This document shows, in pieces, positions 3,703 to 60,577 of a stretch of 64,000 bases of DNA (position 1 is its first letter; each line of letters opens with the position of its first letter). Source of the DNA: Octopus vulgaris (taxonomy: Eukaryota); NCBI GenBank assembly GCA_951406725.2, contig OX597819.1:61814001-61878000 (forward strand). The letters run 5' to 3'. The translations under genes were made by a program, and so were the position numbers. The notes beneath the pieces were generated by a model that made no database searches, was not told the origin of the DNA, and worked only from the letters and a program-made list of their open reading frames with translations.

Positions 3703-3937
3703 ACGTTTACTGCCTGGTGTAATTCTCATCTAAGAAAAGCAGGAACGCAGATAGAAGATATTGAAGAAGATTTTCGGAATGGATTAAAGCTTATGTTGCT
3801 TTTGGAAGTTATATCTGGTGAACAACTACCCAAGCCAGACAGAGGCAAGATGAGATTCCACAAAATAGCCAACGTCAATAAAGCCTTGGACTACATTGCC
3901 AGCAAAGGTGTCAGGCTGGTTTCCATTGGTGCCGAAG
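3703..3937 (+). CDS. Actn: alpha-actinin coding exon, CH1 domain (235 nt, phase 0 to 1)
   Basis: ttccatacAG acceptor and GTaggt donor. Translates [78 protein letters not shown], the canonical alpha-actinin CH1 with actin-binding site 1. Confidence 0.98.
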
Positions 3938-29680: not shown

Positions 29681-29809
<129 letters not shown>

Positions 29810-33799: not shown

Positions 33800-33970
<171 letters not shown>

Positions 33971-41243: not shown

Positions 41244-42274
41244 TAAGATTGAATGAATGTGGTGATATCTGAGGTATGTTTGTCCCAAACAACTCTTATT
41301 TTAGTGCTGTTGACACTGCCAGATTGAATGGTACTGCCCAGGTGTCGAAACCATAGTGATATCCATGGGGAAGCTGATGATAGAGGTATGTTGGATTGTT
41401 GGTACGGCTGTTATTATATATGCAGAATAGTTTTATAACACATCCATTTGGTGTGTGTGTATGTATGTATGTGTGTATATATATATATATATTGCTATTA
41501 TGTTAAACTGTCGTATGTCCAAATTTGGCCAGATGCTCTTTTTTTATCTTTTTTTTTCCAAAATTCATATTTGCTTGCAAAGCTGGTTCTTTTAATCAAA
41601 CCATCATATCTCCAGCTGCTTCAGATGCCAAGACATCAAAATTTGTAAAAGTGTATGTAGTATATTTTCTCGTTTTCTGAAAAAGCAATGTTTTGGACTT
41701 ATGACACCTTTGCATAATAGCAACGGTATATATATGTAGATACTTGAAAGTATATGAAATATATACATCATTTTAATGATGTTAGTCCTTCTTTCACATT
41801 TTAGTAACCAGTTTATTCTTCCTGTAATAGTTTATTTTGCTTATACTATAGTTGTTAATATGACCTTTAGCCTTCATGACCAGTTTTTGTTATAATTCTG
41901 ATCAATTTACCAAGACAGAAGCATGTATATTTAAGTGTATATCATTCAGTTTTTTTTTTCTTTCTTTTTTTTTTTTGGCAGAATCTTTAGCATGCTGGAC
42001 AGATGCTTAGTAGCATTTCTTCCGGCTTTTTACATTCCTAGTTCAAATGTTGACGAGGTTAATTTGCCTTTCATCATTGCAGGGTCAAGCACTGCAATTG
42101 GTGTGATTGACTGCCAAAAAAAAAAAAAAAAAGGGTTTATTTTAAGACAGAATTTCATTTTAATACTTTGAACCAGAAACTCTTTATACCATTGTTATCC
42201 ACTTGTGTGGGTTTTTTTTATTGTTATAAATTGTTTTATAAATATTGCATAAATGTATATTTGTCATATTACAG

Positions 42275-42353
42275 CTGGAAGGATGGTCTGGCATTCTGTG
42301 CCCTGATCCACAGACATCGTCCAGAACTGCTGGATTATTACAAACTCACCAGG
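42275..42353 (+). CDS. Actn: alpha-actinin CH2 exon, variant A of a mutually exclusive pair (79 nt, phase 2 to 0)
   Basis: attacAG acceptor, GTaaat donor. (S)[26 protein letters not shown]; also visible inside track ORF 42168..42401. Confidence 0.96.
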
Positions 42354-42927
42354 GTAAATCAATCTAAAAGAGTTCTCTGCCAGTTATCACTGTTGAGCTG
42401 ATAACAATAAACTCCGTTTTGTCACCCTCACGTTGTCCAACTTGTTGCCACCCATCTATATTTGTTGTCTGACCAGTGCTTTACTTATGCTGCTCACACA
42501 AACACTATCTAACTGAGCAAGTTTTGGCAGTTTATAGAATTAAAAAAATGATAATTAAGAGAAATAAAAAGATATTTATTTTCTCTATACTTTTTTAACT
42601 TCTATCATTCTTCTTTCTCAGATTTTTATCTCAGTCTGACATATCACTGGCAAGAAACGCCAGAAGTGAAATGAAATTTCACTTGTTTTGTTGTTTACTT
42701 ACACATATAGAGAAAATAATATATCAAGTTTTCCTTGAAGAAGAAAAAAAAACTGCCAGAACTTGCTTCTTTTGGTGACGGTGCTAAATCCTTACTACCT
42801 GACACTCTCTTTTTTTATTTCTTCTCTATCTGTTTAATATCTGGTGTCTGTCTGTTCAGGAATGCTAACTCTCCGTTGAGCAACTCATCAAAATGCATGT
42901 ATTGTATGTTTCTTTGTCTTTCTACAG

Positions 42928-43006
42928 CTTTAAAGATGGTTTGGCCTTCTGTGCACTGATTCATCGGCACCGGCCAGATTTAATTGATTACCACAAACTG
43001 TCCAAG
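42928..43006 (+). CDS. Actn: alpha-actinin CH2 exon, variant B of a mutually exclusive pair (79 nt, phase 2 to 0)
   Basis: tttctacAG acceptor, GTgagt donor. (S)[26 protein letters not shown]; same length and phase as variant A. Confidence 0.96.
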
Positions 43007-47415: not shown

Positions 47416-48329
47416 TTAAACGAGCTTTTCTTAAATATATGAATGAGCCAGGACAGTAGAGAGTCAAGAGGACACTTAGTTTTGTCAAGGACAACAGCTT
47501 CTCTAGAGCTGATTCCTTGTTAAAAGGTGTCCACTATATTTTGTCAAGTGATTTGTTAGGGTTAGAGAAGTTATCAATCATAGAAACCAATCCAAAATTG
47601 GAGTGTATGAGTTAGACATAGTCCTCCAAGTAGTAACTATGATTAAGGCAATGTGTTCAACCCGTGCTGGATGAGCCATCATGAGCAAATCAGTTCTTAT
47701 TCAGGTCTACTGTCCACCTTGAGTCAGGGATCATGACTCTCTCACATGTTCTATTTTTAACTTGTCTTCTTCTGCTGGATGCTTTTTCTGTTGCCAATGG
47801 CTACATTTCATAATTGCCCCAGCACTAGAAAGTTACCTCATTTCTGGCAGATAGAAGAGAGAATAGTGAAAAGGGATTAGAGCAAAAGAGAGAGAGGGAG
47901 AGAGAAAGATGATGAGGAGAATAGTCAAAGAGAACTAGTATACTAGGAGTGGGAGGGTGATAAACAGAAGAGTATAAGCAAGAGAAAGCTACAGGCAGCT
48001 ACACAATGATTATTGGTAAGGAGGTTCAATAGGGAAGCATGATGGTGGAAGAAACAGTGAGAGGATGGCGGGGGATGATGAAAGCAGAAATACTGGAGGT
48101 GGGGAATGGGAATGAGAGTGATGGATGTTGATAAGTGACAAGAAAGGAGTGTGTGTGTGATTATACATTGACTCTCTCATTTGTCACTCATATATAATGT
48201 ATATTTATATTTGGGTTTGTGTGTGTGTGTGTATCAAATTTGAATCCTGTTTCGATCCATATTCATATATGTATATATATATATCTATATAATTAAGGTG
48301 ACTATCAGCAATTTAAAACCAAGGAAATG

Positions 48330-51400: not shown

Positions 51401-51657
51401 GTTATAGGAATTCAAATCAAAGGAATAATGCTTTCATTCATCCTTGTTGAGTAGAAAGATAGATCTCCTATCGACACAGAATGTTTGTGAGTGTATTTGC
51501 CAATGTGAAGAATATACATATATGTATGTGCATATATATCATATATATGTATGTATATATGTGTATATATATCTATGTATATATGTGTATATATATGTAT
51601 GTATATATATATATATATATGTGTATATATGTGTGTGTGTGTATATATATATATATA

Positions 51658-51800
51658 TGGCGTTAGGAAGGGCATCCAGCCGTAGAAACTCTGCCAGATC
51701 AGACTGGAGCGTGGAGCGGCCCCTGGCTTCCCAAACCCCGGTCGAACCGTCCAACCCGTGCTAGCGCGGAAAACGGACGTTAAACGATGATGATGATGAT
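51658..51800 (+). mobile_element. young 3' fragment of a (GAT)n-tailed retroelement family
   Basis: TGGCGTTAGGAAGGGCATCCAGCCGTAGAAAC...GGACGTTAAACGATGATG, CpG-rich; older copies near 17240, 20060, 58280 and 63430. Confidence 0.85.
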
Positions 51801-51896
51801 ATATATATATATATGTATATGTAGGTCCCGGGTTGGCTTCCTGATGATTTCTTTTGAATGAAACAGTTCTAGTCCTGTAGAAGCTCCTTCTATAAA

Positions 51897-51933
51897 ATAT
51901 ATATATAGAGATGTATATATATATGTATGTATG

Positions 51934-51964
<31 letters not shown>

Positions 51965-52023
51965 ATATGTGTATATATATATATATGTGTATATATATAT
52001 ATATGTATGTATATATATATATG

Positions 52024-52067
<44 letters not shown>

Positions 52068-52232
52068 GTATATATATATATATGTATGTATATATATATA
52101 TATATGTATGTATATATATATATGTATGTATATATATATATATATGTATGTATATATATATATATATATGTATGTATATATATATATGTATGTATATATA
52201 TATATATGTATGTATATATATATATATGTATG

Positions 52233-52267
<35 letters not shown>

Positions 52268-52288
52268 GTATGTATATATATTATGTAT

Positions 52289-52329
<41 letters not shown>

Positions 52330-52350
52330 TATGTATGTATATATATGTAT

Positions 52351-52391
<41 letters not shown>

Positions 52392-52637
52392 TATATGTAT
52401 GTATATATATATATATGTATGTATATATATATATATGTATGTATATATATATATATGTATGTATATATATATATGTATGTATATATATATATATGTATGT
52501 ATATATATATATATGTATGTATGTATGTATATGTATGTATGTATATATATGTATGTATGTATATATATGTATATGTATATATATATGTATATGTATATAT
52601 ATGTATGTATATATATATATGTATATGTATGTATATG

Positions 52638-52668
<31 letters not shown>

Positions 52669-52702
52669 GTATATATTATGTATATATATATATATATGTA
52701 TG

Positions 52703-52734
<32 letters not shown>

Positions 52735-52760
52735 TATATATATGTATTATATATATATAT
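51897..52760. repeat. compound (TA)n/(TATG)n microsatellite, about 860 bp
   Basis: Read directly; source of the three stop-free ORFs of about 300 aa. Confidence 0.99.
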
Positions 52761-54748: not shown

Positions 54749-54830
54749 GACAATCCACTGGAGAATTTGAACACAGCCTTCGATGTTGCTGAGAAATACT
54801 TGGATATCCCCAGGATGTTGGATGCTGAAG
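54749..54830 (+). CDS. Actn: alpha-actinin coding exon, CH2 (82 nt, phase 0 to 1)
   Basis: aaatctAG acceptor, GTaatt donor. [27 protein letters not shown]. Confidence 0.98.
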
Positions 54831-58935: not shown

Positions 58936-59021
58936 ATATGGTCAACTCAGTGAAGCCAGATGAAAGATCTGTTATGGCTTATGTATCCTCTTACTACCAC
59001 GCTTTCTCTGGTGCCCAACAG
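58936..59021 (+). CDS. Actn: alpha-actinin coding exon, end of CH2 (86 nt, phase 1 to 0; vertebrate exon 8 equivalent)
   Basis: tttacAG acceptor, GTacaa donor. (D)MVNSVKPDERSVMAYVSSYYHAFSGAQQ. Confidence 0.97.
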
Positions 59022-60484: not shown

Positions 60485-60577
60485 GCTGAAACTGCTGCCA
60501 ACAGAATTTGCAAGGTACTGAAGATCAATCAAGAAAATGAGAGGCTTATGGAAGAATACGAGAAACTTGCCAGTGAT
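60485..60577 (+). CDS. Actn: alpha-actinin coding exon, neck and start of spectrin repeat 1 (93 nt, phase 0 to 0)
   Basis: tatgtAG acceptor, GTaagt donor. [31 protein letters not shown]. The gene continues past the window end. Confidence 0.98.

Follow-up and report, generated by a model that had tools for sequence, protein, structure and literature searches.

An old, probably mutually exclusive duplicate of a CH2 exon in the octopus alpha-actinin gene, with a putative Rbfox site before its second copy

Invertebrates are generally described as having one alpha-actinin gene (PMC4550062), and in molluscs this one gene serves striated, smooth and catch muscle as well as all non-muscle cells. How different cross-linkers could be drawn from it is the question raised by a 64,000-nucleotide stretch of the Octopus vulgaris genome (contig OX597819.1, positions 61,814,001 to 61,878,000 of the forward strand), hereafter the window, in which the exon for residues 171-196, in the CH2 domain, occurs twice. 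We asked whether the two copies form a genuine either-or pair, how widely they have been kept, what might choose between them, and what the choice might change in the protein.

The first copy (42275..42353, on the plus strand like all features given here) encodes a peptide running from W to R, and the second (42928..43006) one running from F to K; we call them the W and F forms. Both are bounded by AG and GT, the W exon having an A-rich acceptor and the weaker donor (AGG/GTAAAT), and the F exon a consensus donor (AAG/GTGAGT). The initial annotation had described two same-phase exons of 79 nt with intact splice sites, 574 nt apart, which differ by six residues and 12 synonymous codons; this is exact in the sequence, and our codon comparison (8 codons identical, 12 synonymous, 6 non-synonymous; 57 of 79 nt identical) agrees. 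Placed between the exons 33882-33969 and 54749-54830, either form alone gives a chain that translates in frame. The stops announced for the two other arrangements were both reproduced by splicing in silico: joining W to F gives a stop one codon past the first exon, and with neither exon the frame is lost and a stop follows, so that an mRNA with both exons or neither would meet a stop near codon 197 of 888. The frame shift on joining occurs in all eight distinct paired loci considered below.

Similarity between the two regions is limited to a 103-nt repeat made up of the exon and its splice sites, and the 200-nt flanks of the two exons do not align to each other; the duplication is therefore old. 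Moreover, the copies are kept across species, and the earlier claim of an old duplication with both copies under selection stands. Searched against the entire genome, the F peptide returned exactly two matches, the W and F exons, which leaves one alpha-actinin gene in this genome, and an HMM built from 52 exon peptides likewise found exactly two copies in the window. Splicing with W gives a chain (250 aa, residues 34-283) that matches P0008 (isoform X1; O. vulgaris CAI9724319.1, O. sinensis XP_029637553.1) and the Logan protein P0009 in every residue; the chain spliced with F is likewise the same as P0257 (isoform X2; O. sinensis XP_029637554.1), P0259 and an Argonauta model. These identities exclude chance as the source of the pair. 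In O. bimaculoides, X1 and X2 differ by the same six residues as the W and F forms here. With equal length and phase, canonical splice sites, a frame kept by each copy alone and conservation across species, the pair has the features of tandem-duplicated mutually exclusive exons. By its sequence, the octopus pair is an old, selected duplicated CH2 exon, predicted to be mutually exclusive.

The gene was mapped exon by exon with tblastn, through the window and past its end. Upstream of the pair lie a CH1 exon (3703..3937, residues 33-111, with AG/GT bounds and a translation that agrees with P0008), the exon that ends CH1 (29715..29801, residues 112-140) and a constitutive exon (33882..33969), which we take to be the equivalent of vertebrate exon 5 and which carries two residues of the PIP2 platform, R154 and K160. 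Downstream come a constitutive exon equivalent to exon 7 (54749..54830), the counterpart of the 8a/8b exon of vertebrates and arthropods (58936..59021), present here as one copy according to an HMM of 60 exon-8 peptides, and a neck exon equivalent to exon 9 (60485..60577), the gene running on past the window. No second copy of any other exon, later exons included, was found by tblastn; with exon 8 single, the pair is indeed distinct from the known 8a/8b and 19a/19b events, as had been proposed. A RefSeq isoform X3 of two Octopus species (P0256, P0258) uses the W exon and lacks the first 119 residues, that is, most of CH1, hinting at an internal start, which would concern the long intron 3938-29714. 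Introns after the F exon contain a long TA microsatellite (51500-52760) and, near 48298 and 57482, two 28-bp hairpins that resemble transposon remnants.

Both forms were found in 16 named species, which comprise molluscs, the brachiopod Lingula, the bryozoan Watersipora and, as a weaker case, the flatworm Macrostomum, where they belong to two separate gene models. Thirteen of the 16 have a pair of RefSeq isoforms (two Octopus, three scallops, Patella vulgata, two Mytilus, Biomphalaria, Pomacea, Physella, Lingula and Watersipora), and Patella caerulea and Bradybaena have pairs of GenBank models. Isoform pairs that differ in nothing but this exon are found in O. sinensis, O. bimaculoides, the three scallops, two limpets, two mussels, four snails, Lingula and Watersipora. 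Outside the 16-species count are species for which one form was fetched, for example W in Ostrea, Liolophura and Aplysia, and F in Lottia, Arion and Tubulanus. Ab initio models of Tegillarca, Nucella and Elysia crispata read W and then F in tandem. Among the 16 species, position 171 is W in every first form and F in every second form, and position 196 is R in all W forms and K in 15 of 16 F forms, that of Watersipora ending in R. Y192 is present in 14/16 W forms and no F form, K193 in 16/16 and 11/16, respectively, and positions 187, 189 and 195 vary freely among species.

As for genomic evidence beyond named species, metagenome contigs were scanned with a pattern for the R-ending exon and its donor. 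Eleven loci were obtained, ten of which carry both copies in tandem with the R-ending one first; in the eleventh, L009, the contig ends 1.2 kb past its exon. Removal of same-species repeats left seven distinct paired loci, or eight with the window. Identity of the same copy between loci is 60 and 59 of 79 positions, against 55.5 between copies. Three loci (L001, L005, L008) are nearest to the bryozoan, and three others (L004, L006, L010) to proteins grouping outside molluscs, probably annelids. Given Lingula, Watersipora and these non-mollusc-like loci, the event is spiralian and not molluscan, and the initial annotation, which restricted it to cephalopods or molluscs, was too narrow. The divergence dates of these lineages place the age of the pair above 500 million years.

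The terminal residues are not absolute marks of the two copies, since the R-ending exon of L006 (1233-1311) and of L009 (3686-3764, oriented) starts with F, through conversion or substitution, and the F form of Watersipora ends in R. Other arrangements of the same region were also seen. The protein fragment P0004, vertebrate-like in sequence, has two tandem W-type copies which both start with W and lack the W...R and F...K marks; the same exon is duplicated there as in octopus, but a common origin of the two duplications is open to doubt. In nemertean models of Tubulanus (P0331, P0437) the entire actin-binding domain is duplicated, both copies with F, possibly an artefact of annotation or assembly.

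The W and F isoforms are thus already in public automatic annotation. The X1/X2 models of RefSeq and GenBank (Octopus, scallops, mussels, limpets, snails, Lingula, Watersipora) describe the same two isoforms; being automatic, they are silent on homology, regulation and function. Full-length W (P0009) and F (P0136, P0150) proteins also come from Logan contigs of 3-6 kb, which could not hold the gene unspliced, provided that it is about as large as in octopus. The W form is found in the Logan protein identical to Octopus and the F form in bivalve Logan proteins; among the proteins fetched, the Octopus F form is represented by gene models, with no assembled transcript.

What, then, could choose between the two exons? 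At -34 before the F exon lies TGCATG (42894..42899), an Rbfox-type element between the F acceptor and a predicted branch point, the CTAAC-like motif at 42865..42869, about 60 nt before the exon; an AG stands at -49. None of the seven other acceptors in the window has TGCATG. The motif was first seen in the window and then tested on loci that had been picked without regard to that intron. In 7 of the 8 distinct loci, (T)GCATG lies no further than 60 nt before the second acceptor, which makes 6 of 7 when the window is left aside (P about 7e-7, with a per-locus background of 5-12%); merging three related loci gives 4 of 5 (P 1e-4). In these tests the window is the sole mollusc locus. No GCATG precedes the first exons (0/9), and one was found at 1 of 26 other acceptors, which were roughly called, some being off by a few bases or not real junctions. 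An unbiased count returned GCATG as the 5-mer most shared before the second exon. Its offset drifts from -11 to -42, as expected of a site kept by selection; in L006 the proximal copy is absent and the nearest lies at -100, and the three merged loci have a second GCATG at +7 past the F donor. In all eight loci the F donor is nearer to consensus than the W donor. The element before the second exon, newly recognised here, is likely to be a conserved Rbfox site, and it provides the sequence basis on which a tissue-dependent choice appears likely.

Fox-1 proteins form a metazoan-wide family, are enriched in muscle and brain, bind (U)GCAUG and repress exons from the upstream intron, according to the review by Kuroyanagi (PMC2777236). 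The reading we favour, with a probability of roughly 0.6, is that of an ancient tandem CH2 exon duplicate of which each intact mRNA carries one copy, and in which Rbfox on (U)GCAUG silences F so that W is used in muscle and nerve and F elsewhere. The F exon would be the default through its stronger splice sites. Bound at the conserved element beside the F branch point, Rbfox would block recognition of the branch point or by U2AF, by analogy with calcitonin exon 4 (-34 site) and egl-15 exon 5B, and would thereby leave W. Messengers with both exons or neither would be removed by nonsense-mediated decay. From the motif we infer W in muscle and neurons and F in other tissues. Against the Rbfox part of this reading count the missing proximal site of L006; a PF12414 search of this genome for an Rbfox gene, which gave no match, this C-terminal family being a poor probe; and the planarian, where rbfox-1 is present and passages of PMC4978528 report no enrichment between stem cells and differentiated cells.

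Steric exclusion was considered and rejected. Such exclusion needs the branch point of the downstream exon to lie no more than about 50 nt from the donor before it, and in the 574-nt intron the predicted branch point lies some 510 nt from the W donor. It is also conceivable that competing RNA pairings, of the docking and selector type known from Dscam, and not Rbfox, set both exclusivity and choice. The intron between W and F can form a 19-bp stem (putative 5' arm 42515..42533, 3' arm 42750..42768) that was matched in none of 200 shuffles; its 5' arm can alternatively pair over 11 bp upstream of the W exon, looping W out, and TTGGCAG has just two plus-strand occurrences in the window, one before and one after the W exon. 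Stems as strong were, however, obtained in 5 of 101 other intron tiles (three of them TA microsatellites), and the best stems of the seven other distinct loci are alike neither in sequence nor in position, only three reaching 1/40 shuffles or less. Pairing as the general device thus seems very unlikely to us, although the 19-bp stem may act as a helper in cephalopods. Complementary TTGGCAG and CTGCCA repeats are scattered around W (41973-41981, 42109-42119, 42377-42383, 42522-42532, 42753-42759), so that alternative pairings are possible.

A different objection concerns the protein, and it starts from the differences that are best kept. These are the first and last codons, at the edges of the exon, and they could be splice signals rather than matters of protein function, which we count against the part of our reading that involves a protein swap. 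Taken further, the duplicate would persist chiefly for its use in splicing, for instance to tune expression by unproductive splicing, with W/F and R/K as splice-site signals and a minor protein difference. Consistent with this, the codon at the donor edge is NGG wherever it encodes R and AAG wherever it encodes K in all eight paired loci, positions 187, 189 and 195 are free to vary, and the first exon bears F in L006 and L009. The distribution of Y192 and K193 between the forms is nevertheless an internal, asymmetric protein constraint, and an intact domain sequence is kept in both exons. We regard a pure splicing device as unlikely, while part of the constraint on the first and last codons may come from splicing.

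What the exchange would do to the protein had been put down to PIP2 regulation of the actin-binding domain. In ACTN2 the residues contacting the PIP2 head group are R163, R169 and R192, and the PIP2 peptide originally mapped spans residues 165-181 (PMC4259493). By alignment, ACTN2 numbering is octopus numbering plus 9, and the three residues correspond to R154, K160 and R183. The W/F exchange at 171 (ACTN2 W180) falls on the penultimate residue of the older peptide, R192 lies within the duplicated exon, and charge changes are found nearby (E/D187, Y/H192, R/K196). The three platform residues, and K172 as well, are nonetheless the same in both octopus forms, and the net charge change is small; a tuning of PIP2 regulation, as the initial annotation had it, is poorly supported and looks quite improbable. 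The remaining changes lie within 187-196, after the HRHRP motif, and the swap would retune this presumed surface loop of CH2 together with one aromatic residue. Our best guess from the sequence is an altered actin binding or partner contact, away from the PIP2 head-group site. With an offset of +2, which we assume from the protein length, residue 197 of human ACTN1 would correspond to octopus position 195. R197W is listed among the ACTN1 mutants tested for actin organisation in PMC12561405. A phosphosite reported to lie at Y193 of ACTN1 was dropped from consideration, being absent from the passages available of PMC12561405.

The arthropods suggest a still wider history for this exon, the sixth in the numbering used above. 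In similarity-ranked searches restricted to proteins with organism names, its first residue is W in 25 of 25 chelicerate and F in 79 of 79 mandibulate proteins fetched, and for several insects the identity with the octopus F peptide is complete (26 of 26 residues). In isoform pairs of spiders, scorpions and insects it is exon 8 that varies, a single exon 6 being common to both members. It could be that an Rbfox-run W/F switch dates from the protostome ancestor, spiralians having kept exon 6 and dropped 8a/8b, and arthropods having kept 8a/8b and frozen exon 6, chelicerates on W and mandibulates on F; the insect 'F' actinin would then be the fossil of one splice isoform. This history is weakened because the only clearly derived character shared is the W-to-F change, which is labile (L006, L009), and because one pancrustacean clade has W: in a tree made with the exon masked, a clade with W falls within the pancrustaceans. 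Nor did the proteins fetched include an arthropod with both copies. We consider a protostome origin rather improbable. The cluster of P0336 (849 members), pancrustacean-like, has W and R at the first two positions of the exon, other mandibulates having F.

Among the closest known events is exon 8a/8b, mutually exclusive homologues described in ACTN2, ACTN4, Drosophila Actn and C. elegans atn-1 (PMC4494069, PMC8373072). It too is an ancient, tandem-duplicated, frame-dependent, either-or CH2 exon of alpha-actinin, but the W/F exon lies two exons upstream and measures 79 nt (3n+1) instead of 86 nt (3n+2). Exon 8 is single in the window and in seven loci (L001, L002, L004, L005, L006, L008, L010); with 8a/8b described as ancestral to bilaterians, this suggests that one copy was lost in these lineages. 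The atn-1 exons 4a/4b of C. elegans (161/83 nt, 3n+2, regulated by UNC-75; PMC4165533, PMC3627589) were rejected as a counterpart, being of the other phase class and grouped with 8a/8b in PMC4494069. Passages of PMC4550062, PMC8373072, PMC9741552 and PMC4494069 treat 8a/8b and 19a/19b only, and those of a paper on scallop fast and slow muscle (PMC5963113) contain nothing on actinin isoforms. No description of the W/F pair or its GCAUG was found in the openly accessible literature searched. The novelty of the pair was nevertheless overstated at first, both isoforms being database models. Lek et al. (2010, Mol Biol Evol 27:773) reportedly surveyed some 30 invertebrate genomes for actinin exon duplications and emphasised how common these are in the actin-binding domain. 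That survey may, and in our estimate probably does, already list the W/F duplication in molluscs or annelids.

Exon 5 is duplicated as well in bryozoan-like L001 (2197-2800, oriented) and L008 (3275-3740, oriented) and in isoforms X1/X3 of Watersipora (P0072 versus P0152), which makes two adjacent either-or CH2 pairs there. The alternative exon 5 has changed residues around the PIP2 loop, and no GCATG was found near the duplicated bryozoan-type exons 5. The W/F pair is a further case for the view that this one CH2 domain is tuned in different animal lineages by duplicates of different exons (5, 6 or 8).

As for regulation, Fox-1 steers the NM/SM pair of actinin and the 5A/5B pair of egl-15, and at calcitonin exon 4 it acts from position -34 to block SF1; the NM/SM exons of vertebrate ACTN1, which encode part of the EF hand, are regulated by Fox-1, CELF and PTB (PMC2777236). 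In all three systems one exon is silenced through (U)GCAUG in the upstream intron, as would be the case here, and the -34 position in calcitonin matches that in octopus. Two differences stand out from that account: the exon repressed in the known Fox-1 pairs is the upstream one, whereas the octopus element, whose regulation is predicted, precedes the downstream exon; and ACTN1 NM/SM lies in the EF-hand domain, the octopus pair in the actin-binding domain. The mechanism is thus of a known kind and the isoforms are already in databases; what is added is the spiralian breadth of the pair and its conserved putative Rbfox site, which together make the either-or exon a strong candidate route to tissue-specific cross-linkers from one gene.
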